32,000 nucleotides of DNA from an uncultured Chloroflexia bacterium (GCA_963704755.1 OY969938.1:4200001-4232000), one strand, 5' to 3'. Shown: positions 10,711-26,512, counted from the stretch's first letter. Numbers and translations are program-made. Notes: generated from the letters alone by a model not told the origin.

Positions 10711-10765
10711 CAAAGGGTTTGATATTTTTTCGTGGTTTCACCACGAAAAAATATCAAACCCTTTG
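10711..10765. repeat. 55-nt perfect palindrome (25-bp arms, loop TTTCA) abutting the permease stop codon
   Basis: CAAAGGGTTTGATATTTTTTCGTGG-TTTCA-CCACGAAAAAATATCAAACCCTTTG, read directly from the sequence. The arm is loosely similar to the GGGTGTTTTTATT family. Confidence 0.9.
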
Positions 10766-10876
10766 TTTCTACTCAGGCTAGTTCGGAAATTAGGGGTGTT
10801 TTTATTATTTTTCACGTGCGAAGCACGTGAAAAATAATAAAAACACCCCACTCTTTTGCGGCAGATGAGGAGTTAC
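10765..10876. repeat. Nested-palindrome element, copy A (outer inverted repeats plus 57-nt perfect core palindrome)
   Basis: Outer GTTTCTACTCAGGC (10765-10778) and AGATGAGGAGTTAC (10863-10876). Core 10793-10849 is GGGGTGTTTTTATTATTTTTCACGTGC-GAA-GCACGTGAAAAATAATAAAAACACCCC. 10769-10785 is the exact reverse complement of 11513-11529. Confidence 0.8.
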
Positions 10877-10889
10877 ACCGCATTTTAAG

Positions 10890-11393
10890 TTACCAGCCCT
10901 TCAGGTAAGGCTCCCATTCGGCATTTTCGTTAAGGTGGCGGCCGAAGACAAACACAGCCGAGGCGGTCGGCTCGACCGGTACGCGCTGAGGCTTCATATT
11001 GGCCTCTACCAGGGTACGCCCACCTTTGCGGTGGTTACAGGCGGCGCAGGCCGTAACCACGTTTTCCCAGGTGTGTGGACCGCCCATGTGGCGCGGGATG
11101 ATATGGTCGATGGTCAGGTTGGCAGTACGGCTGCCACAATACTGGCAAGTATAGTTATCTCGCCGGAAGATTTCCCGGCGGGTCAATTTGACATGCGGGC
11201 GAGGACGGTGGATCATTTGCTGCAAACGAATGATCGATGGGCGAGGAAATTCAGCGTTGACGGTGCGGATGTACCCACGCCCATTCAATACCAGCGCAGC
11301 CCGGTTCGTCATGATCAACCCGATGGCACGGTGCATGTTGCAGACGTTAATCGGTTCGAAATTGGCATTGAGGACCAGGACATTCTCGATCAT
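10890..11393 (-). CDS. HNH endonuclease
   Basis: CQYCGSRTANLTIDHIIPRHMGGPHTWENVVTACAACNHRKG is a CxxC..DH..N..CxxC-N HNH zinc-finger nuclease motif. 167 aa, ATG start. Confidence 0.85.
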   Translation of the reverse strand: MIENVLVLNANFEPINVCNMHRAIGLIMTNRAALVLNGRGYIRTVNAEFPRPSIIRLQQMIHRPRPHVKLTRREIFRRDNYTCQYCGSRTANLTIDHIIPRHMGGPHTWENVVTACAACNHRKGGRTLVEANMKPQRVPVEPTASAVFVFGRHLNENAEWEPYLKGW

Positions 11394-11512
11394 AGTACAC
11401 TCTTTCGAAGGATTATAGCACTACGGAAGTTTGTGGTTGGCTATAATAAGGTTAAGAATTGTTAAACATAATGGCTCAGGTTAAATGGAACTGCTCAGTT
11501 CCCCCTATTTTT

Positions 11513-11533
11513 CGAACTAGCCTGAGTAGTTAC
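11513..11533. repeat. Partial element end (inverted-repeat partner of the left end of copy A)
   Basis: CGAACTAGCCTGAGTAG (11513-11529) is the exact reverse complement of 10769-10785. GCCTGAGTAGTTAC (11520-11533) pairs with GTAACTACTCAG (11541-11552) across the loop TAAATAT. Confidence 0.75.
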
Positions 11534-11540
11534 TAAATAT

Positions 11541-11654
11541 GTAACTACTCAGCCATCGCAGAAGAAAAAGGGTGTTTTTATTATTTTTTACATTCGAAGC
11601 ATGTAAAAAATAATAAAAACACCCTCCCCTTCTGAGCCTGCCTGAGTAGTTACC
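11541..11654. repeat. Nested-palindrome element, copy B
   Basis: Outer GTAACTACTCAGCC (11541-11554) and GCCTGAGTAGTTAC (11640-11653), with 14-nt spacers. Core 11569-11625 is AGGGTGTTTTTATTATTTTTTACAT-TCGAAGC-ATGTAAAAAATAATAAAAACACCCT. TAAATAT lies on both flanks. Confidence 0.8.
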
Positions 11655-11680
11655 TAAATATTTTATGAAAGGGCGCTGAC

Positions 11681-12595
11681 ATGAAATGGATCCTGGCAGG
11701 CGGCACCGGTTTGATCGGGACTGCCTTGTGCAAGCAACTTTTGGCCGAGGGGGAGCAGGTATGGGTGCTCAGCCGCAACCCGCAGCCTTCGGGGCTGCCG
11801 GCCGGGGCAGAGGGTTGGCGTTGGGACGGGCGCACCCCGGATGGCTGGGGTCACCTGGTCGAGGAGGCGGATTACATTGCCTGCCTGGCAGGGGAAAACC
11901 TGGGCGCCGGCCGCTGGACGGCTTCCCGCAAACGGGCTTTCTACACCAGCCGGGTCGAACCCGGCCAGGCGATTGTCGAGGCGGTCCGGCGGGCCAATCA
12001 TAAGCCGCGTGCGGTATTGCAAGCTTCGGCAGTTGGATATTACGGCAATAGCGGCGATACGGTTCTGACGGAGCAGTCGCCGGCCGGCCCGGATTACCTG
12101 TCCCAACTGGTGGTCGATTGGGAAAATAGTACGGGCGGGTTGGAGGGTCTCGGTCTGCGCCGGGTGATCACCCGCACCGGGATCGTCCTGGCCCGCGGGG
12201 GCGAGATCCTGAATAAATTTAGGCTGCCGTTTCGCTTTTTCGTGGGCGGCCCGTTGGGAAGCGGCCGACAGTGGCTGCCCTGGATCCACCTGCAGGACCA
12301 GATAAGCGCGATGATTTCCCTGATGCGGAACGAATCCGCCCAAGGGGTATACAACCTGACCGGGCCCAACCCGGTCCGCAATGCCGAATTTGGCAAAGCG
12401 CTGGGTCAGGTGATGCGCCGGCCATACTGGATGCCGGTGCCGGCCTTTGCCCTGCGCCTGGCGCTGGGCGAAATGAGCCAAATGGTCCTGGAAGGTCAGC
12501 GGGCGGTGCCGGCCCGTTTGTTGGAATCGGGCTTTTCGTTTAAATATCCGGAGTTGGAACCGGCGCTGCGGGATTTGTTGGGGAAGGGGAAATAA
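11681..12595 (+). CDS. TIGR01777/YfcH-type SDR epimerase family protein
   Basis: N-terminal Rossmann motif GGTGLIGTAL and a C-terminal DUF1731-like LESGFSFKYPELEPALRDLL. The large antisense ORF 11663-12661 is treated as a shadow. Confidence 0.8.
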   Translation: MKWILAGGTGLIGTALCKQLLAEGEQVWVLSRNPQPSGLPAGAEGWRWDGRTPDGWGHLVEEADYIACLAGENLGAGRWTASRKRAFYTSRVEPGQAIVEAVRRANHKPRAVLQASAVGYYGNSGDTVLTEQSPAGPDYLSQLVVDWENSTGGLEGLGLRRVITRTGIVLARGGEILNKFRLPFRFFVGGPLGSGRQWLPWIHLQDQISAMISLMRNESAQGVYNLTGPNPVRNAEFGKALGQVMRRPYWMPVPAFALRLALGEMSQMVLEGQRAVPARLLESGFSFKYPELEPALRDLLGKGK

Positions 12596-12617
12596 GTTTT
12601 TGCGGCGATTACAAATC

Positions 12618-12680
12618 GTAGGTTGGGTTGGCGGGGATTGGGAAGTTTTTGTGCGTGTCATAACTCCCCGCTAACCCAAC
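12618..12680 (+). repeat. REP-like hairpin, left (GTAG plus 16-bp arms, 27-nt loop)
   Basis: GTAG (12618-12621), then GTTGGGTTGGCGGGGA (12622-12637) pairing with TCCCCGCTAACCCAAC (12665-12680), with one G.T position. Confidence 0.75.
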
Positions 12681-12682
12681 GG

Positions 12683-12711
12683 GTGGCACAAGTTTCAAAC
12701 TCCTCTATAAT
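12683..12711 (+). promoter_or_regulatory. Candidate promoter giving a leaderless RAYT mRNA
   Basis: GTGGCA (12683-12688), a 17-nt spacer, then TATAAT (12706-12711). The ATG at 12718 is only 6 nt after the -10 box, and no Shine-Dalgarno sequence is visible. Confidence 0.3.
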
Positions 12712-12717
12712 AACCAC

Positions 12718-13257
12718 ATGGATTATCGTCGTACCGTTGCACCTGGGGGAACATTCTTTTTTACGGTGGTAACCTGGAATCGGATGCCAGTTTTTTCTGA
12801 CCCCAACCAAATCGATTTGCTCCGCAAGGCAGTAAGTAAAGTTAAAAAGGATCATCCTTTTCGTATAATCGCCTGGGTAATCTTGCCGGATCATTTACAC
12901 ATGATCTGGCGGCTTCCTGTAAACGATAGCGATTACGCAACACGATGGCGGCTGATAAAAAGCCAATTTACCCATCAGTGGAATGGGAAAGATGCGCAGC
13001 TTGTTTCAAGATCTCGCAAAATGAAGCACGAAGCTGCTGTTTGGCAACGCCGTTATTGGGAGCATCTAATCCGGGACGTGAATGATCTTGACAGACATAT
13101 TGAATATATTCATTACAATCCGGTAAAGCACGGTGTAGTTAAAGCCCCAATTGCCTGGCCATTTTCGAGTTTTAGCGAATATGTACATAGGGGTATTTTT
13201 ACACCGGAATGGGGAGCAAGCAACGATCCGGTTTGCGGCGTTATGGTGATTGAATGA
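12718..13257 (+). CDS. REP-associated tyrosine transposase (RAYT; IS200/IS605 TnpA-like Y1 HUH enzyme)
   Basis: HUH motif within ILPDHLHMIW. Catalytic Tyr region RRYWEHLIRDVNDLDRHIEYIHYNPVKHGVV. 179 aa. Confidence 0.85.
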   Translation: MDYRRTVAPGGTFFFTVVTWNRMPVFSDPNQIDLLRKAVSKVKKDHPFRIIAWVILPDHLHMIWRLPVNDSDYATRWRLIKSQFTHQWNGKDAQLVSRSRKMKHEAAVWQRRYWEHLIRDVNDLDRHIEYIHYNPVKHGVVKAPIAWPFSSFSEYVHRGIFTPEWGASNDPVCGVMVIE

Positions 13258-13278
13258 TTCCAGGCGATTTGCCGAAAT

Positions 13279-13345
13279 GTTGGGTTTTGGGGTGGATTAT
13301 TGTTAACAAAAAAACCTTAAATTCTCACCCCAAAACCCAACCTAC
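13279..13345 (-). repeat. REP-like hairpin, right (GTAG plus 16-bp arms, 31-nt loop, inverted relative to the left copy)
   Basis: On the minus strand: GTAG (13345-13342), then GTTGGGTTTTGGGGTG (13341-13326) pairing perfectly with 13294-13279. Confidence 0.75.
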
Positions 13346-13368
13346 GATTACCTGACACTATCTCAAAG

Positions 13369-13429
13369 AGGGGTGTTTTTTATTGTTATTCGCGGGCTTC
13401 GCCCGCGAATAACAATAAAAAACACCCCT
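13369..13429. repeat. Core-only copy C of the palindrome family (61 nt, 29-bp arms)
   Basis: AGGGGTGTTTTTTATTGTTATTCGCGGGC-TTC-GCCCGCGAATAACAATAAAAAACACCCCT, which is GCGAAGC on the minus strand. It sits 7 nt from the stop of the SEDS-PBP gene. No outer repeats were found. Confidence 0.85.
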
Positions 13430-13436
13430 AATTTAT

Positions 13437-16061
13437 TTACTGTTTTGCCGGGCTCAGCGCTGCATCTAACACCGAATGGCCGATCTGTTCGGCCAGATCG
13501 GGGTTGTTTTCTTCAAGCACCAGGGCGATGGCCAGGGGCTGCCCGTTCCAGGCCGGCAGGGTGCCGCCGACGTACCAGGTATATTCCTTTTGGCCGGAGC
13601 TGGCCTGGCCGATCGTCTCCCAGACGGGTAAATCGACCGAGGCTAAATTACTCACAGTGGCATCGAAGTTGGACTGGGTAATGACCTTCTCGGACGGATC
13701 CGAGGGCAAGACCACCCAACCTTGTTGGGGAGTTTGGACCGAGATCACCAGCAGGGGGCTGGGACGTACACCGTGGTTGCTGAGAGTGGCTGCAGCGAGG
13801 GCCATTTGCAACGGCGATACCTGGATCCCGGATGCCCCCAAAATGGCCTGGCCCGCGTCCTTGACCGGTTCGTTCGGGCTGGCGGTGGCAACCGGCAGGC
13901 GTAGATTGGGTTGGTTGTAGAAGCCAAAATCAGTGAACATTTCCTGGATCTGGCTGGCAGTGATCAGGCCGTCGAAACTGGCCAGGGCGCCCGGACAGCC
14001 GGCCTGGATGGCGGTTTCCCAGGTCAGCGGCGCCTGGGGCGTTACCGAACAGGTCTGTAGCTTGCCGTCCACCGTCAGGGAAAGGCTCTTGGGCGCCTGG
14101 GAGGTCGTTTCTCCTAACCAGGCGTACAGGAATGGCCCCAGCACCGTTCCGGGCGGATATTGGCCCTGGGTGGCCCGATTCACTAAAGGCGCGTTGGCAT
14201 CGTTGATCCAGGTATTCCAGTTGGCGTCCAGGGTATTGGGATCGAAATAGGGGTGCGAGGCGAGGGACAGAATCTCACCGGTCTGGGCGTTGAGCAGCAC
14301 CAGGGCGCCGGAGTGATCGCCCAAGAGGCTGTCGGCTTCCTGTTGTAAATTCAAATCCAGGCTCAGGCGGATGTCGAGGCCGTTGGGCGGTTGGGTATAG
14401 ATCAGCCGCGAAAGCCAGTAGGTTGAAGCCGGGACGCCCTGCTGCCCGGACAGGTAAGCATTGAGGGTGTCTTCCAGCCCGGATTTTCCGTAGGTGCTAT
14501 TCGCATAGCCGATAGTGGTGCTGAGGGGCGGGTAAAGCAGGCTGCGGGTGTAATTTCCCGGCGTCCCAACGGTCACGGCAATATCCTGGCTGCGGCGGTC
14601 GAGGAGCGAGCCACGCGGGACGAAACGCTCATCGATGATCCAGCGCAGGTTGTCCGTGCGGGCCAGCAGCCCGTCCGAGCGAATGACACCCCACCAGCCG
14701 GCGATCAACCCCAAGGCGCCAAAGCCGCACAGGAGCAGCCCGGAGGTCGCCAGGTACGAACTGGGATGGAGGGCAGGGAGGGGCGGGGGCTCTTCCGGCC
14801 GTCCGATCAATAGGAGCAGTGTCAGCGAAACGAACGAAATCAATAAAGACGATCCGCCATAGGAGACGAATGGCAAGGTGACCCCGGTGAGCGGCAGCAG
14901 GCGGAAGTTGCCGCCCAGGATCAAAATAGCTTGCAGCCCGAAATAGATCGAAATGCCAAAAGCCAGCAGGCGTTGATACAGGTTAGGTGCCTGGATGCCG
15001 ATGCGCAGGCCGCGGAAGCATAACAGCGTAAAGAGCAAAATGATCGCCAGGATGCCCATCAAGCCGGTCTCTTCGGTAATCGCCGAGGCGATAAAGTCAC
15101 TATGCGCCAGCGGTACCAGCCCGGGACTTCCCAGGCCGGGGCCAGAGCCGATCAGCCCACCGGCGGCGATCGAGATCAAGGATTGGACGATCTGGTATGA
15201 GCGGTTGGCCGAATTGGCCCAGGGGTTCAGCCAGGCGTCGACGCGCAGGCGGATGACGTCGAAGGACAGATAGCCGGCAACAACCGCAGCGACCAGGGCG
15301 ACCCCGCAGATGATCAAGATCCGCCGCCGCCCGGAAGCCATGAATACCACCAGGGTGTAGATCGCCACAACCAGGGTCGCGGTACCCAGGTCGCGTTGGG
15401 CGACCAGTAGCAAAGCGGCCGCGCCGGTCACCACCAGGGTGGGGGTGAGCAATTGGCCGAGGCTGTAACTGACCGGGAGTTTATCGGCCAGATAGGCGGC
15501 CAGGTAAATGACTAAAAGAAGTTTGAGCGGCTCGGAGGGTTGAAAGTACAGGCCACAGCAGCCCAACCACAGGCGCGGACCGACCCCACCGGGATATTTG
15601 CCAAAAACGAAGGTCAGCACGATCAGAAGCAGGCCGGCAGTCAGCCAGATGTACTTGTAGCGGCGCAGCAGGTTGAGCACCTGTGAGAAGTGCATGCCCA
15701 GTTCGATCACCAACAACCCGACTGCCAGCCAGACGGTCTGGCGCAGGCCTAAAGTAGTATCCAGCCGATAAATGGTCAGGATGCCCCAGCCGGTCAGCAA
15801 GCCGGCGATTGGCAGCAGGAAGGGGTCATGTTCGGGGGCGTAATGGTTTACCCGCCGGTAGATCAACGCGAAGCCGGCCAGCCAGACCAGGAACCCAATC
15901 CATTGGACCCAGCGGTAAGTAGTGTTCCAGGAATGCACCCGCACGGCCTGAGAAAGGGTCAGAATCAGGCTGTAGAGGAACAAAAACCCGGCCGCCAGTT
16001 TCATCAGGCGGGCTTCGAGTTCACTTTGAGGTGCGTTGACGCCGGGGAAAAACAGGTTCAC
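13437..16061 (-). CDS. SEDS (FtsW/RodA) glycosyltransferase fused to a class-B PBP-like domain with degenerate catalytic motifs
   Basis: N-terminal SEDS motifs PSEPLKLLLVIYLAAYL, HSDFIASAITEETGLMG and LPFVSYGGSSLL. C-terminal PBP2-like motifs RGSLLDRRSQ, GKSGLEDTLN, GALVLLNAQTGEILSLASHPYFDPN and VSPLQMALAAATLSNHG. The GTG start at 16061 overlaps the mtnP stop (GTGA). Confidence 0.85.
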   Translation of the reverse strand: MNLFFPGVNAPQSELEARLMKLAAGFLFLYSLILTLSQAVRVHSWNTTYRWVQWIGFLVWLAGFALIYRRVNHYAPEHDPFLLPIAGLLTGWGILTIYRLDTTLGLRQTVWLAVGLLVIELGMHFSQVLNLLRRYKYIWLTAGLLLIVLTFVFGKYPGGVGPRLWLGCCGLYFQPSEPLKLLLVIYLAAYLADKLPVSYSLGQLLTPTLVVTGAAALLLVAQRDLGTATLVVAIYTLVVFMASGRRRILIICGVALVAAVVAGYLSFDVIRLRVDAWLNPWANSANRSYQIVQSLISIAAGGLIGSGPGLGSPGLVPLAHSDFIASAITEETGLMGILAIILLFTLLCFRGLRIGIQAPNLYQRLLAFGISIYFGLQAILILGGNFRLLPLTGVTLPFVSYGGSSLLISFVSLTLLLLIGRPEEPPPLPALHPSSYLATSGLLLCGFGALGLIAGWWGVIRSDGLLARTDNLRWIIDERFVPRGSLLDRRSQDIAVTVGTPGNYTRSLLYPPLSTTIGYANSTYGKSGLEDTLNAYLSGQQGVPASTYWLSRLIYTQPPNGLDIRLSLDLNLQQEADSLLGDHSGALVLLNAQTGEILSLASHPYFDPNTLDANWNTWINDANAPLVNRATQGQYPPGTVLGPFLYAWLGETTSQAPKSLSLTVDGKLQTCSVTPQAPLTWETAIQAGCPGALASFDGLITASQIQEMFTDFGFYNQPNLRLPVATASPNEPVKDAGQAILGASGIQVSPLQMALAAATLSNHGVRPSPLLVISVQTPQQGWVVLPSDPSEKVITQSNFDATVSNLASVDLPVWETIGQASSGQKEYTWYVGGTLPAWNGQPLAIALVLEENNPDLAEQIGHSVLDAALSPAKQ

Positions 16062-16933
16062 GATTGCAAATATTTATCCACCAACAGCGAAAGCTTCTGG
16101 CGCGTCTCGGCCGGTACGACGGCGGGGTTGGTGATGAGAGCTTTTTCCAGCGCATTGGCACATTCGCAGGTGCGGTCCCGGTCCTGCAGCATAGGCGCCA
16201 GATTACGAATGGTCTTTTGGGCAGCCTGGGTGTTCTGGGCCAGGGTCTTGACGACCATCTCCACGCTGACGGCCTCGGCAGTCTGGTGCCACACGTCGTA
16301 ATCGGTGATGTGGGCCAGGCAGGCGTAGCACAATTCGGCTTCCCGCGCCAGGAAAGCCTCCGGGGAGGCGGTCATGCCAATGATGGAAACGCCCCACGAA
16401 CGGAACAGGTGCGACTCGGCCTTGGTAGAAAAACGAGGGCCTTCGATCGTGATGAACGTGCCGCCTTTATGGGTATTGACCTCAGTTGAGACGGCGGCCT
16501 GGTACAATGCAGCTGAAAAATCCGGGCAGAATGGGTCAGCGGTGCTGACGTGGGCGACCAGGCCCTCACCAAAGAAGGTGCGTTTGCGGTCGCGGGTAAA
16601 ATCGATGATCTGGTCCGGGACAACGAATTCCCCGGGCTGATAGTCGTGGCGCAGCGATCCGCAGGCACTGATGCCGACCACATAGGAAACCCCCAGGGCT
16701 TTGAGGGCGTAGATGTTGGCGCGGTAATTGACCTCGCTGGGCAAAATGAAATGACCGATGCCGTGCCGGGCCAGAAAAGCAATCCGTACACCGGCCAGTT
16801 CGCCAATTATAATGGGCGAAGAGGGCTTGCCAAAGGGCGTATCGGTCTCTACGGTCTGGGTGTTTTCGAGGCCTTCGAAGGCATACAGGCCAGAACCGCC
16901 AATCACACCAAGGATGGGTCTATCCGACATCAT
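16058..16933 (-). CDS. mtnP: S-methyl-5'-thioadenosine phosphorylase
   Basis: GVIGGSGLY, PFGKPSSPIIIGELAGVRIAFLARHG, PSEVNYRANIYALKALGV and MTASPEAFLAREAELCYA are typical of MTAP. Confidence 0.9.
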   Translation of the reverse strand: MMSDRPILGVIGGSGLYAFEGLENTQTVETDTPFGKPSSPIIIGELAGVRIAFLARHGIGHFILPSEVNYRANIYALKALGVSYVVGISACGSLRHDYQPGEFVVPDQIIDFTRDRKRTFFGEGLVAHVSTADPFCPDFSAALYQAAVSTEVNTHKGGTFITIEGPRFSTKAESHLFRSWGVSIIGMTASPEAFLAREAELCYACLAHITDYDVWHQTAEAVSVEMVVKTLAQNTQAAQKTIRNLAPMLQDRDRTCECANALEKALITNPAVVPAETRQKLSLLVDKYLQS

Positions 16934-16954
16934 ATTTATTCTCCAGGTAGGGGA

Positions 16955-17398
16955 TTACTCCCCAGTTCGTTGTTTGGGAAGGATTTCGATGCGAAAACTG
17001 CTCTGACCGCAGCGGACCTCGTCACCAGAGACGACCACCGTCACGGTGGTCAGGCGTTCGTCGTTCAAGAACGTGCCGTTGGTCGAGCTCAGGTCTTCGA
17101 TCCACCATTGGTTCTGGTGATACGACAGGCGTGCATGGCGGGCTGAAACGGTCTCGTTGGGGATGGCAAAGGCACAGGTTGGGTCCCGGCCGATGATAAC
17201 CTCGGGTTTATTGTAGGTGGCTGTTTCGCCCTCCAGGAAGTCCAGGGGGGTCAGCAGTAATTCGGGGATGTGACGGGCTGCCAGCGATTGGGTGTGATAG
17301 CGTAAATCACGCCAAAGCGTATAGAGGCACCATCCCAGGAAGGCGTACAGGATGGCCGTCATTAGAATGCGAAGGATCAGTACGAGGATGCCACTCAT
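16955..17398 (-). CDS. FHA domain protein with N-terminal TM helix (FhaB/FipA-like)
   Basis: TM helix ILVLILRILMTAILYAFLGWCLY, followed by the FHA core IGRDPTCAFAIPNETVSARHARLSY..WWIEDLSSTNGTFLN. Confidence 0.8.
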   Translation of the reverse strand: MSGILVLILRILMTAILYAFLGWCLYTLWRDLRYHTQSLAARHIPELLLTPLDFLEGETATYNKPEVIIGRDPTCAFAIPNETVSARHARLSYHQNQWWIEDLSSTNGTFLNDERLTTVTVVVSGDEVRCGQSSFRIEILPKQRTGE

Positions 17399-17410
17399 GA
17401 TTTGAGTATA

Positions 17411-18166: not shown

Positions 18167-18221
18167 AGGTGTAATTATATAACCTGTTTTACCTTGCCAG
18201 TCAGGCAAGGATTAATAAGTC

Positions 18222-18276
18222 CCCGAAATTGAGGTGTTTGCGCCGGCGAAGCCGGCGCAAACACCTCAATTTCGGG
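18222..18276. repeat. Divergent copy D of the palindrome family (55 nt, 26-bp arms, GAA loop)
   Basis: CCCGAAATTGAGGTGTTTGCGCCGGC-GAA-GCCGGCGCAAACACCTCAATTTCGGG. The outer-repeat-like motifs are weak: CCAGTCAGGC (18197-18206) and AGTTGAGCGGTTAG (18291-18304). Confidence 0.8.
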
Positions 18277-18813: not shown

Positions 18814-19907
18814 GCCGGGTTTTTGTGATTGCCGCGGCTCTTGCCCGGGCGCAGGTAGATCGGGTTGCTGAAGATCCATCCGCGGCGCTGGCCCAGGTAG
18901 TGGATGTAGGCCTCCACCCGGTATACACCGGGCTGGTCGGTGATGTGGGTACAGACTTCCTGGTTTTTCCAGGCTTTGATCGTGCGCCCATCTTTTTTGA
19001 GGATGCACTCGGTCCGCAGCGGCAAGCGAATCTGCAAGGTCACCGAGCCGTTGACCGGCATTTCGTCACCCATGATGATCGAATTTTCGGCCGACTGTGC
19101 GCTGAAACGGAATCCGCGGGTGGGTTCGGGCAAGTCATAGCCGACGAAACAATGGCCGGCCCGGTAGGCCTGGTAGATCATCTTTCGGTCACTGACCAGG
19201 TCGCCTGTCAGCGGGTTGGGGGTAAAGATGTGGGTGTTGATGGCCCGGTAATGGAATTCGTAGGGGAAGATCGTCGCCTGGAGCGGCCCGGCTTTGACGT
19301 GCAGCATGTGGGCGTCCGATCCGCCGACGGCAACCACCCTGCGCCCTTTTTCGAGCAACCCGTCCCAACGGTCGAGGACTTCGGGGACCGGTCCCAGGGC
19401 GAGGAAATTGGGGAAGAGCGTATAAACCAAAGCGTCCACCCAGGAATTGATACGCACTTTCAGTTCGCTTAGCCCGTTCCATAATTCAATGCCAGTAAAC
19501 CGATCCACACTCCAATCGACCCAGGAGATGTCGTCTTCATGGACCATGGCCAGGGCCGGGTCTTTGGGATGGGCAATGAAACAAACCCCACCCGATTTGG
19601 CAACCTGGTCGATCAGGTTCTGCGGGCTTCCGGCGTAGGTGGCCATTTCACGGCCGGCGCCTAACACCAATAAATGGTTCTTCTGCGGCTGGCGGGCCTG
19701 GTCGTGGACCTCCTCGCCGATAAGCATCAATACCTTATGGCCGTTCCGGCGGTGGTAACCTTCCAGACCATTGACCAATACGTTATGATCGGTTACGATC
19801 ACTACGTCCAAACCAGCATTCAAGGCCGCTTCGGCGATGTCCTTGTGCAGGCCGGTCCCGTCGGAATAGCGGGTATGCATGTGCAAATTAGTAACAAGTT
19901 CGTGCAT
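18810..19907 (-). CDS. PHP-domain metallohydrolase (CehA/McbA-like)
   Basis: NLHMHTRYSDGTG, VVIVTDHN and GGSDAH are metal-binding motifs of the PHP fold. Confidence 0.75.
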   Translation of the reverse strand: MHELVTNLHMHTRYSDGTGLHKDIAEAALNAGLDVVIVTDHNVLVNGLEGYHRRNGHKVLMLIGEEVHDQARQPQKNHLLVLGAGREMATYAGSPQNLIDQVAKSGGVCFIAHPKDPALAMVHEDDISWVDWSVDRFTGIELWNGLSELKVRINSWVDALVYTLFPNFLALGPVPEVLDRWDGLLEKGRRVVAVGGSDAHMLHVKAGPLQATIFPYEFHYRAINTHIFTPNPLTGDLVSDRKMIYQAYRAGHCFVGYDLPEPTRGFRFSAQSAENSIIMGDEMPVNGSVTLQIRLPLRTECILKKDGRTIKAWKNQEVCTHITDQPGVYRVEAYIHYLGQRRGWIFSNPIYLRPGKSRGNHKNPA

Positions 19908-19912
19908 AAACG

Positions 19913-19943
19913 GTTGACGAATCCACCCTTCAAACGGTATAAT
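19913..19943 (+). promoter_or_regulatory. Candidate promoter for secG
   Basis: TTGACG (19913-19918), a 19-nt spacer (longer than optimal), then TATAAT (19938-19943). AGGAGG at 19961-19966 precedes the GTG at 19974. Confidence 0.3.
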
Positions 19944-19973
19944 TTTTTCGTTAACTTCTTAGGAGGAACAAGC

Positions 19974-20195
19974 GTGGGTAATTCCATTAATATTGCCTTG
20001 ATTATAATCTCAATCGCGTTGATTGCCAGCGTGATCTTTCAGAATAAGGGCGTTGGCCTGGGCGGGTTAACCGGGGCGGACAGCAGCCAGGTTTTCAGTG
20101 CACGGCGCGGCCTTGAGAAGACAGTCTTCAACATCACAATTGGGTTGAGCATTGTATTTGTTATTCTCACCATGCTGTCGGTGGCTTTCGGATAA
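19974..20195 (+). CDS. secG: Preprotein translocase subunit SecG
   Basis: In-frame GTG 19974, 7 nt after AGGAGG. 73 aa with two TM helices flanking a Gly-rich loop (FQNKGVGLGGLTGADSSQVFSARRG). The upstream part of ORF 19674-20195 is antisense to the PHP gene. Confidence 0.75.
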   Translation: MGNSINIALIIISIALIASVIFQNKGVGLGGLTGADSSQVFSARRGLEKTVFNITIGLSIVFVILTMLSVAFG

Positions 20196-20240
20196 ATCAC
20201 CGAGAATCAGCGTATCTTGCAGAAATATTTTCTAATCCGC

Positions 20241-20280
20241 AAGGCGACCAGCTCGTAAAAAGGGGCAGATCGCCTTTTTT
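20241..20280 (+). terminator. Candidate intrinsic terminator after secG
   Basis: AAGGCGA (20241-20247) pairs with TCGCCTT (20270-20276) and is followed by a T-run to 20280. The loop is large (22 nt), so this is weak. Confidence 0.35.
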
Positions 20281-20297
20281 ACATTCCCCCCCAACCT

Positions 20298-22013
20298 ATG
20301 AAAAAATTTAGATGGCAACTTTTAATCATTTTCCTGACCGGCATTGTGGTCGGGATATTGTTGTTGAGCGAACAGCCCAATTCGACCAATCGGCTTTCGC
20401 CAGAGCCGGCCAAAGGAGGAAATTACACTGAAGCGCTGACCGGGTCGATCCAACGGCTGAACCCGATCCTGGATTTCAATAACCAGGTGGACCAGGACGT
20501 GGACCGGCTGTTGTTCAGCCGCTTGATTACCTTCGACGAGCATGGCTACGCGGTGGGCGACCTGGCCCAGTCCTGGGGTAATTCCCAGGATGGCACCGTT
20601 TATACCATTGTCTTAAATTCCAAGGCAAAATGGCATGACGGAAAGCCGGTGACAACGGATGATATCGTCTATACAGTCAATCTCCTGAAAAATGGCGGCG
20701 ATGTGGTTCCCCAGGATATTCAGGATTTTTGGAAAGATATCGAGGTTGTCAAGCTGGATGACCACAACCTGCAATTTAAACTGCCGGAAGCCTACGCGCC
20801 TTTCCTGGATTACCTTTCCTTTGGGATCCTGCCGTCACACATCTTCAACGGGATGACCATCGACCAGGTTCAGCAGATGAACGTCAACCTTTCCCCCATT
20901 GGTTCGGGGCCCTACCAGTTCGACCAACTGCTGCTGGATAACGGCCAGATTACCGGTATTTCATTGAAGGCCTTCAGCGATTACTACGGTGACGAGCCCT
21001 TTATCCAACAGATTGTTTTCCGCTATTATGCCGACTCCGCTTCGGCTATGCAGGCCTACAAAGATGGGCAGGTCAACGGGATCGATCACGTGACCGGTGA
21101 CATTTTGCCGGCTGCATTGAACGAACCAAACCTTTCGATTTATACCGGCCGCTTGCCTGAGTTGAGCATGATCATGTTTAACTTGAACGATCCCCAATCC
21201 GCGTTTTTGCAAAACGCGGATGTACGCAAGGGACTGTACATGGGGATCAACCGCCAGTACATTGCCAACAAGGTTTTGAATGGCCAGGCTTTGCTGGCCA
21301 ATGGGCCAATCTTCCCTGGCACCTGGGCCTATTATGATGGCATCGCACCGGTGGACTATAACCCGGAGCGGGCCGTCCAGAACCTGGTGAATGCCGGCTA
21401 TACCATGCCGGCCGATGGCGGGACCACCCGCGTGGATAGCAGCGGGAACGCGCTTTCTTTTACCCTGCTCTACCCAGATGATGACCAGCACCTGGCCCTG
21501 GCGCAGGCTATCCAGAGCGAATGGCAAGACATGGGTGTCACCGTTAACCTGGAAGCCGTGGCATACGACGACCTGGTCAATAACCGCCTGACCAACCATG
21601 ATTTCCAGGCGGCCCTGGTGGACCTGAACCTGACCAACCTGCCCGACCCTGATCCATACCCGTTCTGGGATTCGGTCCAGGCTACGGGTGGCCAGAATTA
21701 CTCCCAGTGGAGTAACAAAATTGCCAGTGAATATCTGGAAGGCGCGCGGACGACCACCAACATGGATGACCGTATCCGCTACTACCGCAATTTCCAGGTG
21801 GTCTTCTCCGAGGACCAGCCGGCTTTGCCGCTGTTCTATCCTGTTTATAATTATGGGGTGGACCAGGCCGTCCAGGGCGTGCGGATGGGGCCGCTCCTGG
21901 ATCCTAGCGACCGCTTCGATACGGTCACGAAATGGTACCTGGTAGCCAATTCAGCAGGTACGGCGGCGGGTACGTCCGCTGCGACCACCGCAGCCACTAC
22001 CGCGGCACCCTGA
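20298..22013 (+). CDS. ABC transporter substrate-binding protein, family 5 (peptide/nickel type)
   Basis: 571 aa with an N-terminal signal-anchor (LLIIFLTGIVVGILLL). Its length and sequence blocks are typical of OppA/DppA-like SBPs. The C-terminal tail is Ala/Thr-rich. Confidence 0.85.
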   Translation: MKKFRWQLLIIFLTGIVVGILLLSEQPNSTNRLSPEPAKGGNYTEALTGSIQRLNPILDFNNQVDQDVDRLLFSRLITFDEHGYAVGDLAQSWGNSQDGTVYTIVLNSKAKWHDGKPVTTDDIVYTVNLLKNGGDVVPQDIQDFWKDIEVVKLDDHNLQFKLPEAYAPFLDYLSFGILPSHIFNGMTIDQVQQMNVNLSPIGSGPYQFDQLLLDNGQITGISLKAFSDYYGDEPFIQQIVFRYYADSASAMQAYKDGQVNGIDHVTGDILPAALNEPNLSIYTGRLPELSMIMFNLNDPQSAFLQNADVRKGLYMGINRQYIANKVLNGQALLANGPIFPGTWAYYDGIAPVDYNPERAVQNLVNAGYTMPADGGTTRVDSSGNALSFTLLYPDDDQHLALAQAIQSEWQDMGVTVNLEAVAYDDLVNNRLTNHDFQAALVDLNLTNLPDPDPYPFWDSVQATGGQNYSQWSNKIASEYLEGARTTTNMDDRIRYYRNFQVVFSEDQPALPLFYPVYNYGVDQAVQGVRMGPLLDPSDRFDTVTKWYLVANSAGTAAGTSAATTAATTAAP

Positions 22014-22057
22014 CCCCCGCTGGATAAATGCACGTCTGAAGAACGATTAGTACTCTC

Positions 22058-22098
22058 GTGAGGGTTATTGATCTGCTCGGCGGATCAATAACCCTCAC
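22058..22098 (+). terminator. 41-nt near-perfect palindrome downstream of the SBP gene (hairpin, no U-tract)
   Basis: GTGAGGGTTATTGATC (22058-22073) pairs with GATCAATAACCCTCAC (22083-22098). The apex GC-TCG-GC adds 2 bp. No T-run follows, so terminator function is uncertain. Confidence 0.35.
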
Positions 22099-22137
22099 CC
22101 TTAAACTCTCCTCAGGTGGGAAAGGGATGGATTACCG

Positions 22138-22695
22138 ATGAAGCAAAAATTCTATACCGGCAAAGGCGACCAGGGCTCGACCGGCCTGTTAGGCGACCGG
22201 CGGGTGATGAAATCCGATCAGCAGATCGAGGTGTTGGGGGCGTTGGATGAGGCCTCGGCAGCGCTGGGGCTGGCGCGCAGCCTGTCTGGCCCTGGTGAAG
22301 TCAATGAAACGGTCCTACAAGTGCAGCGTGACCTGTACCTGCTCATGGGGGAAGTGGCCGCCACACCGGAAAACGCCGCACGGTTTCGGGCTTTGTCGCC
22401 CGAAAGTCTGGCCTGGCTGGAGGGCCAGGTGAATAATTACGGCGGCCAGGTCGAAATGCCGGCGAAATTTATCGTCCCGGGTGACAGCCTGCTTTCGGCG
22501 GCCTTCAACCAGGCGCGGGCGGTGGTCCGCCGGGCGGAACGCGAACTGGTACGCCTGGGCCAGCAGCGTGCCCCGGAAAACCTGGAGCTCTTTCTGGCTT
22601 ATATGAACCGCTTATCCTCGTTGTGTTACGTTTTGGAATTATTCGTTATAAAGGCCGCCGGCGGCAATCCACCGACGCTGGTCGAAAAGGAATAG
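22138..22695 (+). CDS. ATP:cob(I)alamin adenosyltransferase, PduO type
   Basis: N-terminal KFYTGKGDQGSTGL, then VLGALDEASAALGLAR and FIVPGDS..ARAVVRRAEREL, typical of PduO/MMAB-type enzymes. Confidence 0.85.
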   Translation: MKQKFYTGKGDQGSTGLLGDRRVMKSDQQIEVLGALDEASAALGLARSLSGPGEVNETVLQVQRDLYLLMGEVAATPENAARFRALSPESLAWLEGQVNNYGGQVEMPAKFIVPGDSLLSAAFNQARAVVRRAERELVRLGQQRAPENLELFLAYMNRLSSLCYVLELFVIKAAGGNPPTLVEKE

Positions 22696-22696
22696 C

Positions 22697-23419
22697 ATGA
22701 TCGGCACAATCATCAACGCAGCAGCAATTATCCTGGGGGGAGCGGTGGGGCTGCTCCTGGGAGGTCGCCTGAAAGACGGTTTACGGCGGACGGTCGTGGC
22801 CGGTGTAGGTTTATTCACCATGGCTTTCGGGATTCAAATGTTTTTGACCACCCACAATGCCCTGGTGGTGTTGGGCAGTATCCTGATTGGAGCGCTGCTG
22901 GGGGAATGGTGGCGGGTCGAGGATGGCCTGGAAGGGTTGGGAAAATGGCTGGAGACGCGCTTTCTGGGGGGAAAGAATGGACAGGAAAGCAACGGCCAGT
23001 CGTCGCGCTTTGTGCGCGGCTTTTTCACAGCCTCGTTGTTATTTTGCGTCGGCCCTATGGCAATCCTGGGTTCGATCCAGGATGGCCTGACCGGAAATTT
23101 CCAAACCCTGGCAGTGAAGGCGATCCTGGACGGCTTCACCGCGATGGCGTTTGCCTCCACCCTGGGGGTAGGCGTACTGTTTTCGGCCGGCATGGTTTTC
23201 CTTTACCAGGGCGCGATTTCGTTGCTGGCATTTCAGGTGCAGGCGGTTGTTTCGGACGCGATGATGGCCGAGATGAATGCCACCGGCGGGGTGATTCTGA
23301 TCGCCCTGGCGATCAGCAGCCTGCTGGAGATCAAGAAAATCCGTTCGGGCAATTTCCTGCCCGGGCTGGTCATCGCGCCGCTGCTGGTGCTTTTAATGCA
23401 AAGGTTGGGAATATATTAA
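22697..23419 (+). CDS. DUF554 family membrane protein
   Basis: N-terminal MIGTIINAAAIILGGAVGLLLG and polytopic topology, as in YdfK/YqgA-like DUF554 proteins. Confidence 0.8.
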   Translation: MIGTIINAAAIILGGAVGLLLGGRLKDGLRRTVVAGVGLFTMAFGIQMFLTTHNALVVLGSILIGALLGEWWRVEDGLEGLGKWLETRFLGGKNGQESNGQSSRFVRGFFTASLLFCVGPMAILGSIQDGLTGNFQTLAVKAILDGFTAMAFASTLGVGVLFSAGMVFLYQGAISLLAFQVQAVVSDAMMAEMNATGGVILIALAISSLLEIKKIRSGNFLPGLVIAPLLVLLMQRLGIY

Positions 23420-23834
23420 ATTTCATGAAGAAAGCAGTTAGGCTGTTTACTTCACGAAATTTATTTGACTACCCAGTCTTTAAAGTCAAGAGTTCAGGAT
23501 TAGCAGAAAAAAATAATTCTGGGCAAGGTTGTTCAAATATCGACAATCAAAGGAATCAAAACTTTTCTACCTTTATATAAGGCAGAAATTTGAGTCATTT
23601 ATCATCAGGGCGAAGACGCGAAAGTTTACTTTGTTCAAGCGCTAATGCAAAACTTTTTTTCTAAGAATGATCGAATGCAAGCCTTAGAAGTACGATGAGT
23701 TTAAAATAAACACGACAGAAAAAATCCTTTATAAGTTGTACCTTCGAGAAACCGTGCCAGACGCTAATAGAAATGTCACGATTTCAAAGAAAACGAAAAG
23801 CAGGTAACAAAGGTCATACTTTTTAACTTATTCC

Positions 23835-23944
23835 GTAACTGCTCAGGCAAGTGCGCAAGGCGAGGGTGTTTTATTGTTTTTTGTGCGCGAAGCGCACAAA
23901 AAACAATAAAACACCCTAAACCTCTGCGGTAGCTAAGTAGTTGC
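23835..23944. repeat. Nested-palindrome element, copy E
   Basis: Outer GTAACTGCTCAGGC (23835-23848) and AGCTAAGTAGTTGC (23931-23944). Core 23863-23917 is AGGGTGTTTTATTGTTTTTTGTGCGC-GAA-GCGCACAAAAAACAATAAAACACCCT. CTTATT occurs at 23827-23832 and at 23945-23950. Confidence 0.8.
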
Positions 23945-23970
23945 CTTATTTCAAAAGAAACTGTTTTTAG

Positions 23971-24588
23971 TTATCCATTCTCTTTTTTACCTCTACGGAG
24001 TTGAATGTCAGCAATTATTCCAATGAGGACTGTCAGGCTAATTGAAACAAACAAAAATAGTATTCCCGCTGCAAAGCTGGGATTTTTGCATACATTGTTT
24101 GGCCCGAAAAAATCCTGAAAACAAAATTCTTCAAATTGACCTATAGTAATAAAAGATAAAATGCAAAGAGGGAAAAAAGAAATTAATGCAATTAAACCAG
24201 CAATGTAAGCAGCTTTTCTCTTTACCGTTTCTTTCATAAAAAACGAAAGCACAATTATTGTGCCACCAAGGAAGAAAGCTATCATGCCAGAAAAAGTAGT
24301 AATTCCGGTTACAATATCTATTACCGCATCACCTTGAGTAATTTTAATCCAAGGTAAAAAGGTGCTTAGAACAATTCCAGTTCCTGCAACAGCAGTAAAA
24401 TAACGAAGACTTGGAGAAAAGTTTTCTACAGAATTTGCCTGATCATCAACTAATTGCTGTTCTATAGATTTTTCTAGAGGTAATTGTCTTTTGTCGGTAG
24501 TTATTTTTGTTTGCGGGATAGGCACACCACAAAAAGAGCAAAAATTTGAATCTCCATTAATTTGGTTTCCGCAATTAGAACAATACAT
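23971..24588 (-). CDS. Zinc-ribbon protein with four TM helices (AT-rich island gene 2)
   Basis: N-terminal MYCSNCGNQINGDSNFCSFCG (CxxC-x10-CxxC) followed by four hydrophobic helices. AGGGGA lies upstream of the ATG. No family recognised beyond the zinc ribbon. Confidence 0.6.
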   Translation of the reverse strand: MYCSNCGNQINGDSNFCSFCGVPIPQTKITTDKRQLPLEKSIEQQLVDDQANSVENFSPSLRYFTAVAGTGIVLSTFLPWIKITQGDAVIDIVTGITTFSGMIAFFLGGTIIVLSFFMKETVKRKAAYIAGLIALISFFPLCILSFITIGQFEEFCFQDFFGPNNVCKNPSFAAGILFLFVSISLTVLIGIIADIQLRRGKKENG

Positions 24589-24646
24589 CTTTTTTCCCCT
24601 AGAGAATTACCTTTTGCTTTTCTATGAACAAAATCTTTCGAAAGGG

Positions 24647-25375
24647 TTATTTTATTTTTTCGTTGATGCTATCCTTACCTTCTTCATAATTTTGACTAGA
24701 CATAGCCATTAAAGCACCAATCCAATCGTTATAAGAGTAAAATTGGGTACTCTCAGCATCTGCATTAATATAATCAACGCTAAGATTTTGCAAAAACGAA
24801 TTGTAGTTATTGAGATACAAATAATCCATATTACCAGATCTTTTTAATCCATCATCCCATACCTGTAGAGTAAGATCCCATCCTCTCAAAGCTTCATCAA
24901 AATTGCTCTTTTCAGTGGTTAATGCAGAAGGCCAAGAGTTTTCTAATTGGTTATAATCGCTTTTTACATTTGCAAGTTGGTTCCTAAAATCACTATTGGT
25001 TACACCTTGCGAGGTCATAATATTTAATTTGTCTGATTCAATTAGAAATTGTTTCACCTCGGTTTTAAATTTTGCGGGTATTGAATTCTTTTGTATTGCA
25101 ATAACAATAAAGATTACAATAACAATAAAAATCAATCCTCCAAGAATCTTAGTTGCAGTTTTGAACCATTTATCGTCATCGATAAATCTATTAATATTAG
25201 TAGTACTGTTTTCTTCAATCTCTGGTTGTAAACCAATAATGCTATGTTTTTCTGCTTCTTTAAAAGCTGTTGCGTCTGAAACATAAAAGTTTTCATCATT
25301 TGTGGTAGGTGCTCCGCAAAAGGAGCAAAATTTTGAGTTATCAAGAATTTGTTTACCGCAGGCTGAACAATACAT
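24647..25375 (-). CDS. Zinc-ribbon protein with one TM helix and an extracytoplasmic helical domain (AT-rich island gene 1)
   Basis: N-terminal MYCSACGKQILDNSKFCSFCG, paralogous to the downstream gene. TM helix ILGGLIFIVIVIFIVIAI. AGAGGGAGAG lies upstream of the ATG. Confidence 0.6.
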   Translation of the reverse strand: MYCSACGKQILDNSKFCSFCGAPTTNDENFYVSDATAFKEAEKHSIIGLQPEIEENSTTNINRFIDDDKWFKTATKILGGLIFIVIVIFIVIAIQKNSIPAKFKTEVKQFLIESDKLNIMTSQGVTNSDFRNQLANVKSDYNQLENSWPSALTTEKSNFDEALRGWDLTLQVWDDGLKRSGNMDYLYLNNYNSFLQNLSVDYINADAESTQFYSYNDWIGALMAMSSQNYEEGKDSINEKIK

Positions 25376-25575
25376 CTCTCCCTCTTATATTCAAACCTTA
25401 CAAAAGCTAATAATCTATATTTAAATTTTGTTAACTATTTTACAATATTTTTAAATTTATTCATTAAAATCTCACCAATTTTAAGTCCTCTCATCCTATA
25501 AATTTTGGTTATCATCTTAATTATTTGCGCTGATTTACTAGCCTCAAATTTCGTAGCTACTCAGCACATTAATAA

Positions 25576-25619
25576 GGACGCAGGATTTGTGGTGTTATGC
25601 CATCTCAAATCCTACGTCC
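25576..25619 (-). terminator. Hairpin downstream of the DsbA-like gene (candidate terminator)
   Basis: GGACGCAGGATTTG (25576-25589) pairs with CAAATCCTACGTCC (25606-25619), with one mismatch and a 16-nt loop. On the minus strand it is followed by TTATTAAT. Confidence 0.4.
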
Positions 25620-25626
25620 AGCGAAT

Positions 25627-26325
25627 TTAATTCAGTATGGAATCGATCTGGGAGAAAAGCGTGTCCTGCCCGACCAGGGTGCCGTTCACATCGAAGGTCG
25701 GCGTGCCGGTGACGCCTTTACCCGATGCGTACTGCTCGTCCTGGGCAACCTGGTTGGCGTATTTGTTGCTGGAATAACAACTGTTGAATTGGGTCATATC
25801 GAGTCCCAGGTCGCTGGCAAAAGCCTGTAAAAGCGAATCACTCAGCCCAACGCCATAATTGGCAAAGATGTAATCATGGAATTCGAAGAATTTGCCCTGG
25901 TCCATGGCACAATAAGCCGCTTCAGCGGCGGTCGCCGAGGTAGGGCTGATGAAGCTCATTGGGACGTAGTGGAAATAGACTTTTCCGATATTGACGTAAT
26001 TATTCAGCAACTGTGTTTCGCCGGTTTGCCAGAAATTTTCACAATGAATACAATTGAAGTCACCGAATTCTTCAACCTTGACCGGTGCATTGGGATCGCC
26101 AGCGTAGGTCCCATTGGTTTGCGAGCGGGTATAGACTTCCGGCCTGGTGAAATTGGCGGAGGATACCGGTTTGTTTTGGATGATCAGGACTGCCGCAAGG
26201 GCCACGGCAACGACGGTCACCGACCCAATGATCAGCAAACGGTTACGCTGCTGCTGTTGTTTTCGTTTTGCCCGAATTTGTTCTCGCTTGCTCTGTTTCC
26301 CTGCTTTGGATGAGGTTGAGGTCAT
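25627..26325 (-). CDS. DsbA-family thioredoxin-fold protein, membrane anchored
   Basis: A basic N-terminal tail plus a TM anchor, CxxC in FNCIHCENF, and C-terminal GVTGTPTFDVNG. GGAGGA lies upstream of the ATG. Confidence 0.8.
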   Translation of the reverse strand: MTSTSSKAGKQSKREQIRAKRKQQQQRNRLLIIGSVTVVAVALAAVLIIQNKPVSSANFTRPEVYTRSQTNGTYAGDPNAPVKVEEFGDFNCIHCENFWQTGETQLLNNYVNIGKVYFHYVPMSFISPTSATAAEAAYCAMDQGKFFEFHDYIFANYGVGLSDSLLQAFASDLGLDMTQFNSCYSSNKYANQVAQDEQYASGKGVTGTPTFDVNGTLVGQDTLFSQIDSILN

Positions 26326-26453
26326 CGATCATTTCCTCCACTTGGCGTTTGTTTTGAAAAGGGGGCTGGTCAGCACCCGGCGATTTGAATAGATAAGCAA
26401 TAAGGTCTATTTTGCCATATTTATATTAAATTTTCCAATAGTTTAATTAAATT

Positions 26454-26512
26454 AACGACGAACGGGGCTGATGTTCGCGGCTTTGCCGCGAACATCAGCC
26501 CCGTTCGTCGTT
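26454..26512 (-). terminator. 59-nt perfect palindrome ending the minus-strand operon (candidate bidirectional terminator)
   Basis: AACGACGAACGGGGCTGATGTTCGCGGC-TTT-GCCGCGAACATCAGCCCCGTTCGTCGTT. It is GC-rich, followed by TTTT on the plus strand and by an A/T-rich run on the minus strand, and sits 15 nt downstream of the GNAT stop. Confidence 0.55.

Follow-up and report, generated by a model that had tools for sequence, protein, structure and literature searches.

Long perfect triloop palindromes at gene ends of an Anaerolineae bacterium: a candidate family of miniature inverted-repeat elements

We analyzed a stretch of 32,000 nt (the window) from a 4.87-Mb contig of an uncultured Chloroflexia bacterium (GCA_963704755.1 OY969938.1:4200001-4232000), whose intergenic DNA carries a series of long palindromes closed by three-nucleotide loops. 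The window proteins match those of Anaerolineae (Chloroflexota) and its genes are housekeeping genes, e.g. for FtsK, Lgt, an ABC exporter, a class-wide conserved HNH protein and an FhaA/FhaB/FtsW-PBP operon. Scanning the window exhaustively for perfect hairpins (loops of 3–8 nt) revealed seven perfect palindromes with stems of 25–29 bp, all with 3-nt loops, plus an eighth of 19 bp. Seven of the eight lie 0–53 nt downstream of a stop codon, and each of the three convergent intergenic regions of the window contains at least one. A first-pass annotation, made from the sequence alone, had given the coordinates and sequences of the seven longer palindromes correctly and missed the eighth (22058-22098).

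Four palindromes share the arm sequence GGGTGTTTT..ATTRTT and constitute the core family: c1 (10793-10849; 27 bp, loop GAA), c2 (11569-11625; 25 bp, then a T.C mismatch and one further pair, loop GAA), c3 (13369-13429; 29 bp, loop TTC on the + strand) and c4 (23863-23917; 26 bp, loop GAA). The scan thus bore out the initial description of a dispersed family, with shared cores at separate loci and arms that pair perfectly over 25–29 bp save for one T.C position near the c2 loop. Stem lengths in the window were bimodally distributed, without any perfect stem between 12 and 24 bp, and 30 dinucleotide-preserving shuffles of the window gave perfect stems of 11 bp at most, with none of 15 bp or more. 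RNA folding of the palindromes gave energies of –30 to –59 kcal/mol (z-scores –9 to –14). Beyond the perfectly paired part, complementarity fell to background within 1–2 bases, and no G.T pair occurred in any of the seven perfect stems, the only one being that in the 19-bp palindrome at 22058.

Palindromes this regular might be fold-back products of assembly or sequencing, as the first-pass annotation had considered. Frameshifted genes in the window assembly do suggest long-read errors, and short-read contigs often stop at palindrome centers. However, an independent short-read assembly (Logan, ERR11571143), differing from the window at 3 of 2102 positions, contains the palindromes at 10710 and 10793 unchanged, so these are not artefacts of one assembly; orthologous palindromes moreover recur across samples and assemblers (ENA, JGI, NCBI, Logan), are 55–100 nt long and sit in intact intergenic contexts. 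The chance of an artefactual origin is accordingly negligible in our view.

A point missed at first is that the palindromes do not all stand alone. Three of the four core-family copies (c1, c2 and c4) are the centers of a ~113-nt unit bounded by a 14-bp terminal inverted repeat, GTAACTACTCAGGC / GCCTGAGTAGTTAC. The six half-units, i.e. both orientations of c1 (10793), c2 (11569) and c4 (23863) with their flanks, align over their full length and give the order terminal repeat, ~15-nt spacer, perfect core, second spacer, inverted terminal repeat. The core spans 55–57 nt, beginning with GGGTGTTTT.., passing through a G+C-rich apex, usually GCGAAGC, and ending in ..AAAACACCC; while its inner 25–27 bp are perfect, pairing across the outer ~29 nt of the arms amounts to about 60–70%. 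The 14-mer GCCTGAGTAGTTAC matched the window five times with up to two mismatches and eight times with up to three (1.2 expected at the latter cut-off), and all good copies were located about 15 nt outside a core, pointing inward. The three copies thus have the make-up of a miniature inverted-repeat transposable element (MITE): a short non-coding unit with terminal inverted repeats.

The full c1 unit (10765-10876), whose core ends 40 nt downstream of the stop codon of the HNH gene, has its left repeat GTTTCTACTCAGGC at 10765-10778 and a degenerate right repeat, GATGAGGAGTTAC, at 10864-10876. In c2, between the divergent HNH and epimerase genes, the terminal repeats (11541-11554 and 11640-11653) are flanked on both sides by the 8-bp direct repeat CTAAATAT (11533-11540 and 11654-11661; 8/8 identical), the whole occupying 11533-11661. 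Similarly, the terminal repeats of c4 (23835-23848 and 23932-23944) lie between CTTATTCC (23827-23834) and CTTATTTC (23945-23952), which are 7/8 identical; this copy, flanking repeats included, extends over 23827-23952, with its core ending 53 nt downstream of the stop codon of a zinc-ribbon gene. Immediately left of c2, a core-less remnant, c0 (11487-11533), retains a left-repeat-like GGAACTGCTCAG and the last core bases TTCCCC, followed by the right-hand spacer and terminal repeat GCCTGAGTAGTTAC; its outer part matches that of c1 at 25 of 30 positions. The fourth core-family member, c3, is a core without shell, located 7 nt after the FtsW-PBP stop and sharing the 6-nt flank TAATTT with c1. 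A possible decayed copy (25553-25619), 7 nt after the stop of a DsbA-like gene, combines the 14-mer-like GTAGCTACTCAGCA (25553-25566) with a 19-bp hairpin containing three mismatches (25576-25619).

The window therefore holds four to five family copies and one remnant, and comparison with relatives indicates that copies come and go. In a syntenic relative (L006; HNH protein at 82%), a full family unit with outer arms, spacer and core lies in the intergenic DNA between FtsK and CDP-OH, where the window has none. Conversely, the closest relative found (L007 and L008; HNH 89% identical) has a 61-nt spacer downstream of HNH and no palindrome on either side of that gene. Multiple dispersed copies, non-orthologous sites and presence/absence differences between relatives are likewise what is seen of MITEs, and the c0 remnant, the L006 unit at a site empty in the window and the copies missing from the closer relative argue for MITE-like dispersal; judged from these sequences, the family appears to have been gained and lost at non-orthologous sites. 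A precise empty site was not obtained from the HNH-flanking spacers of L006 and L007, which are too diverged for comparison with those of the window, and the same applied to the site downstream of FtsK. In a scan of JGI metagenomes, cores of the same type (GGGTGTTTT..AAAACACCC) were found in several contigs, including other Anaerolineaceae, one of which (L076) is assigned to that family by protein-cluster name. A pattern scan of GTDB species-representative genomes returned three matches and one of viral contigs ten, none of them palindromic and all attributable to chance, and BLAST searches of phages and plasmids with the full unit gave zero matches.

MITEs with long hairpin-forming bodies are well known from the Correia/NEMIS elements of Neisseria and the enterobacterial ERIC/IRU elements. 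Like the units described here, these are non-coding dispersed sequences of ~100–150 nt with terminal inverted repeats and short target duplications (candidates for which flank two of the window units), lie intergenically near gene ends, form a whole-unit hairpin when transcribed and vary in presence between relatives. In contrast to them, the window family encloses a perfect 55–57-nt triloop palindrome between poorly paired outer arms, and its core is also found without terminal repeats, in the window genome as well as elsewhere.

As a RAYT transposase gene lies 111 nt from c3, we considered whether the palindromes are REP or REPIN elements mobilized by it. The gene (12718-13257, + strand) encodes a bona fide RAYT (NCBIfam REP_Tyr_transpos, 200 bits; cut-off 80), and REPINs resemble the present units in having two conserved inverted ends around a variable hairpin-forming segment, in which length and pairing ability are what matters and compensatory changes are frequent (PMC3116915), as well as in being intergenic, dispersed and accompanied by a nearby RAYT gene. 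Yet the repeats on either side of this RAYT are not family palindromes but GTAG-tagged hairpins of its own (GTAGGTTGGGTT; 12618-12680 and 13279-13345). The same GTAGGTTGGGT repeats also flank its homologues in two Chloroflexota contigs (L132 and L133; 59–64% identity), where neither a family palindrome nor any perfect hairpin of at least 18 bp occurs; L133 has only an unrelated 17-bp hairpin containing one mismatch. Furthermore, REP stems measure 5–13 bp and carry a GTAG or CGTC tag at one end (PMC3733652), whereas the palindromes begin with (A)GGGGTG, lack either tag and have stems of 25–29 bp, i.e. two to five times as long, and the family ends are not palindromic REPs themselves. Duplications of 8 bp would also be unexpected for HUH/Y1 single-strand transposition. 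We consequently rejected the RAYT as the mobilizing enzyme, an explanation that we rate as highly improbable. The RAYT locus as such (12618-13345) constitutes a complete REPtron ending 23 nt before c3, with 16-bp perfect terminal inverted repeats (AATCGTAGGTTGGGTT).

Within each palindrome, the arms are kept identical even where copies differ from each other, as had been pointed out at the outset. Across five family copies, 98.5% of alignment cells pair, and 12 of the 28 stem pairs show changes in both partners and not one in a single partner only; none of 500 shuffles reached any of the five measures of this symmetry. Orthologous palindromes in closely related contigs allowed such changes to be followed over shorter distances. 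Between the Ktedonobacteraceae contig L123 and L154/L155, which are 99.06% identical over 4.9 kb, a 75-nt palindrome that follows an MFS gene shows the changes C:G>A:T and G:C>C:G, a loop change from TCT to its exact reverse complement AGA and one outer mismatch/indel; another palindrome of these contigs shows no differences. Between L123 and L158/L159 (about 97% identical; 96.8% for L159), an 83-nt palindrome differs by G:C>T:A and one loop base, with L158 bearing an additional uncompensated single-nucleotide polymorphism in one arm, the expected transient state. Given the numbers of substitutions, the probability that they hit paired positions and give complementary bases there by chance is about 3e-7, and since all three compensated changes are transversions, no G.U wobble intermediate is possible.

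Read at the level of sequence, the compensated changes together with the loop flip are the signature of template switching between the arms. Template switching on inverted repeats is known to homogenize their arms and to invert the spacer (PMC5941160, PMC8604942, PMC7202029), and arm homogenization therefore calls for no new mechanism (PMC5941160, PMC8604942). Of the two readings first put forward for the perfect symmetry, a process that makes the arms identical or very strong selection on a hairpin or cruciform, the former is thus directly supported by the compensated transversions and the loop inversion, albeit in the shape of an established mechanism. Quasi-palindrome correction, formulated in the Ripley model and followed in Escherichia coli, yeast and proteobacterial comparative genomics, likewise produces homogenized arms, symmetric mutations and inverted spacers, and predicts that perfect inverted repeats should be over-represented and conserved (PMC5941160, PMC8604942, PMC7202029). 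It is a mechanism, however, and not an element family; published arms mostly measure about 5–15 bp compared to 25–48 bp here, and what is seen in the present case is its footprint alone.

Several features point to symmetry being enforced through hairpins in single-stranded DNA. Of the eight window loops, six are GAA or TTC; five apices read C-GAA-G, wobble pairs are lacking, the loops are triloops and not tetraloops, and the arms end sharply. The heptamer d(GCGAAGC), which, exactly as first noted, forms the apex of four of the five originally listed copies on one strand, folds into an exceptionally stable DNA mini-hairpin, its RNA counterparts being much weaker (PMC13037366). The G+C-rich center would argue against easy cruciform extrusion from duplex DNA. 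Spacers of the window copies are only weakly similar (8–10/16), leaving no basis for orienting copies to detect loop flips, and loop orientation showed no significant bias relative to replication strand or gene strand (n=8). As to the apex, the L006 copy (L006 15036-15085) reads ..TTTACATGT(T)AAA.. and lacks the heptamer, its counterpart in c2 being ..TTTACAT-TCGAAGC-ATGTAAA.., and c1 minus GCGAAGC is an even perfect palindrome (CACGT|ACGTG); from its distribution, the heptamer seems to behave like a separate apex module.

Taking these lines of evidence together, we favor, with moderate confidence, a MITE-like palindromic repeat family that is kept symmetric by template switching and possibly has a secondary role as an RNA 3′-end hairpin. 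The palindromes would mostly represent the hairpin cores of a small non-coding family in an Anaerolineae bacterium, with the unit structure described above; the units would be spread in trans by some transposase, for which the apparent 8-bp target duplications suggest a cut-and-paste enzyme of the DDE type. All copies are intergenic, most of them shortly 3′ of genes. Arm identity would stem from a DNA-level process rather than slow compensation of the RNA type, as observed in the related Chloroflexota and presumed for the window genome. In this process, the nascent strand would switch template between arms during replication (quasi-palindrome correction), upon which a new arm mutation would be either erased or copied onto the other arm, and the loop could invert. 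A transcribed core would yield an RNA hairpin of 25–29 bp, probably acting as a 3′-end barrier or stabilizer, or as a U-tract-independent pause or stop. Any such RNA function is regarded as a likely side-effect or later co-option and not as the family's reason for existing.

A number of observations weigh against this account. The window contains only three full units; the c1 flanks AACCCTTT and ACCGCATT agree at 5/8 positions, which is not convincing as a duplication, and the L006 copy has none, leaving two good cases among four units (c1, c2, c4 and that of L006). Terminal repeats are absent from c3 and from the palindromes at 10710, 18222, 22058 and 26454, and the 14-mer is absent from the same-type cores in other metagenome contigs. 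Judging by these repeat-less cores, core and MITE shell may be independent modules, or several origins may be involved. Neither an autonomous element nor a transposase with matching terminal repeats is present in the window, the only transposase there being the unrelated RAYT. With regard to template switching, the compensated changes and the loop flip come from Ktedonobacteria, a different class from that of the window genome. Within the L076 group of Anaerolineaceae, the orthologous palindrome is imperfect: one position of the left arm has three alleles, and a single genome carries three one-sided changes; given these uncompensated changes, correction is not always fast. Finally, ectopic conversion from a paralogous copy could account for the symmetric changes and the loop flip, and selection on pairing in large populations could account for the compensated pairs.

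Selection on pairing is also central to a different explanation, in which the palindromes are dedicated U-tract-independent terminators or protective hairpins of mRNA 3′ ends that evolved in place, similarity between copies being secondary. Their position shortly after stop codons and the occupation of every convergent region are in line with this, as are the very stable RNA hairpins that they would form, and use of both strands in convergent regions would favor Watson–Crick over G.U pairs. Canonical hairpin-plus-T-run sites were not clearly enriched in the window (35 vs. 25.3 ± 5.1 in shuffles), several of the 35 being the palindromes themselves. In L006, moreover, long near-perfect palindromes of unrelated sequence occupy the same intergenic slots, one following the tRNA-editing gene and two located between HNH and ABC2. 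Intrinsic terminators, including bidirectional ones, are similarly stable hairpins located just past stop codons and enriched between convergent genes.

They differ from the palindromes, however, in several respects. Here, on either strand, the G+C apex is preceded by the T-rich and followed by the A-rich tract, the stems are three to five times longer, and the loops comprise 3 nt instead of the usual 4 (PMC13155455, bacterial norm). On the strand of the adjacent gene, none of the core-family hairpins is followed by a T-run; T-rich sequence 3′ of the stem on the + strand was seen only at 26454-26512 and 10710-10766. Rfam gave zero matches at gathering score across the whole window. Further arguments against terminators evolved in place are the location of c2 between divergent genes; the empty sites downstream of FtsK in the window and downstream of HNH in the 89% relative, given which the hairpins are dispensable at these gene ends; and the terminal repeats, flanking duplications and core-less remnant, which bespeak insertion. 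Triloops dominated by GAA/TTC, in addition, typify stable DNA rather than RNA hairpins (PMC13037366), and sharp-ended stems of 25–48 bp are unlike evolved RNA hairpins. We therefore consider this origin unlikely, although it is the strongest of the competing explanations. The initial objection that polarity speaks against termination was right in that no U-tract follows the hairpins, but does not suffice to dismiss an RNA 3′-end role, which is made plausible by the succession of stop codon and palindrome and by the very stable RNA hairpin that a transcribed copy would make.

The palindromes outside the core family are to be considered separately. That at 10710-10766 (27 bp, loop TTC on the + strand), the first base of which is the last base of the ABC2/SpoIIM stop codon, is a diverged relative of the core family (covariance-model score 52 bits). 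The palindrome at 18222-18276 (26 bp, loop GAA; score 43 bits), located 36 nt 3′ of the stop of a tRNA-editing-domain gene, is G+C-rich with the apex GCGAAGC. At 26454-26512 (28 bp, loop TTT), 15 nt 3′ of a GNAT gene stop, only the apex TTCGCGGC is similar to that of c3, the sequence being otherwise unrelated, and the eighth palindrome at 22058-22098 (19 bp including the G.T pair, loop TCG) lies 44 nt 3′ of the stop of a solute-binding-protein gene.

Chiefly for such solitary palindromes, local fold-back synthesis is conceivable: a mini-hairpin, e.g. GCGAAGC, would let the nascent strand snap back and copy neighboring DNA, so that a new perfect palindrome is made from local sequence with no transposition involved. 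Palindromes of unrelated sequence indeed share one architecture, with stems of 25–29 bp here and of 36–48 bp in Ktedonobacteraceae, a center of nearly always 3 nt and sharp arm ends, and template switching has been reported to expand inverted repeats (PMC13100816). The L006 family copy lacking GCGAAGC implies partly separate histories of apex and arms, and the outer 7–8 nt of an L123 palindrome (palindrome B) coincide with a pre-existing gene end, including its stop codon, that is seen in the palindrome-less relative L161. This overlap, however, is the self-complementary CTTAAG and could reflect a TTAA-type target or chance; partly extended intermediates were not seen among the palindromes, and copying of unrelated local DNA cannot yield arm sequences shared across loci and genomes, as in the core family. 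Overall, we judge fold-back synthesis improbable.

The L123 locus also brings to mind the attC sites of integrons, i.e. recombination sites that bound mobile gene cassettes and are recognized as folded single strands. The ~90%-identical L161 (1552-1608) lacks a 2.8-kb segment with MFS and TetR genes that in L123 (2063-4887) lies between two long perfect palindromes; in the window, palindromes adjoin the RAYT insertion and lie near the ends of an A+T-rich island. The size of 55–100 nt overlaps the attC range, and attC sites share the imperfect-palindrome logic, the location at gene 3′ ends and the action as folded single strands. Nevertheless, Pfam scans of 20 window proteins revealed no integrase or site-specific recombinase. 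The palindromes end in GGGTG/CACCC and the outer units in GTAAC/GTTAC, without the conserved R″/R′ ends (RYYYAAC/GTTRRRY) or extrahelical bases, and their pairing is perfect, whereas attC requires imperfections. The cassette-like case is a single one, moreover, and explained equally well by deletion between the palindromes. An attC-like function thus strikes us as very improbable.

A broader possibility, which we regard as a long shot, is that Chloroflexota, specifically Anaerolineae and Ktedonobacteraceae, possess a lineage-wide, dedicated way of making and using triloop palindromes with 25–48-bp arms at gene and cassette boundaries. Within this scheme, the palindromes might be made by an enzyme specific to hairpins, or by self-primed fold-back synthesis for which DNA mini-hairpins such as GCGAAGC provide the seed. 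If true, the palindromes would serve as U-tract-independent stops or as single-strand recombination sites for moving cassettes, and the MITE shell would merely be one vehicle.

We found no specific description of such elements in the literature on palindromic repeats in Anaerolineae, Ktedonobacter and Chloroflexi. Together with the negative results in Rfam and in the phage and plasmid BLAST searches and the lack of REP/REPIN features, this upholds the early impression that the repeats belong to no described family. While the arm-homogenizing mechanism was already known, what is new is the family itself, an undescribed palindromic repeat from a poorly studied phylum, with its architecture of a perfect triloop core in an imperfect shell. 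Also new are the recurrence of perfect triloop palindromes with 25–48-bp arms at gene ends in at least two Chloroflexota classes and the clean symmetric substitutions with loop inversion, which offer a natural test case for template-switch homogenization on unusually long arms, visible between genomes that are 97–99% identical. Should the hairpins stop or stabilize transcripts without a U-tract, this would bear on termination in phyla where canonical terminators are scarce. For annotation, the elements mark operon ends and break short-read assemblies at their centers: contigs from many samples end exactly at or just before palindrome centers (L151–L153, L156 and L157; L001 at window position 23863). 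De Bruijn-graph assemblies of these bacteria are thus systematically fragmented, which helps explain the fragmented state of Chloroflexota metagenome assemblies.

Some further observations concern the cores and their surroundings. In contig L045, two near-identical shorter cores with 21-bp arms (1100-1149 and 4158-4204) have 5-nt loops that are reverse complements of each other (CTACA vs. TGTAG). The c1 and c2 cores contain σ70-like hexamer pairs (TTCACG or TTTACA, 16 nt, AATAAT; 10809-10838 and 11587-11614), which owing to core symmetry occur on both strands and could in principle drive outward transcription both ways. A promoter reading of the cores (TTTACA-N16-AATAAT in c1 and c2) was rejected, as the conserved promoter of HNH is located elsewhere and the motif is poorly matched in c3 and c4. 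Likewise, Shine–Dalgarno-like GGGGTG/GAGGTG sequences in the 5′ arms were judged to be a by-product of the G-rich clamp.

Elsewhere in the window, the genes for FtsK (4329-6510) and an ABC-transporter ATPase (8374-9308) are each split over two or three reading frames, which looks like long-read frameshift errors rather than real pseudogenes; their orthologues in Thermanaerothrix loci (L009 and L010) are single genes, and the same kind of fragmentation affects other genes in L006. The A+T-rich island at ~23420-25600, with a G+C content of 0.29–0.36 vs. about 0.57 elsewhere, has c4 inside its left edge and was probably acquired horizontally. Two island genes (23971-24588 and 24647-25375, both on the – strand) encode paralogous zinc-ribbon proteins of membrane type, and their 5′ ends share 72-nt repeats that are 75% identical.

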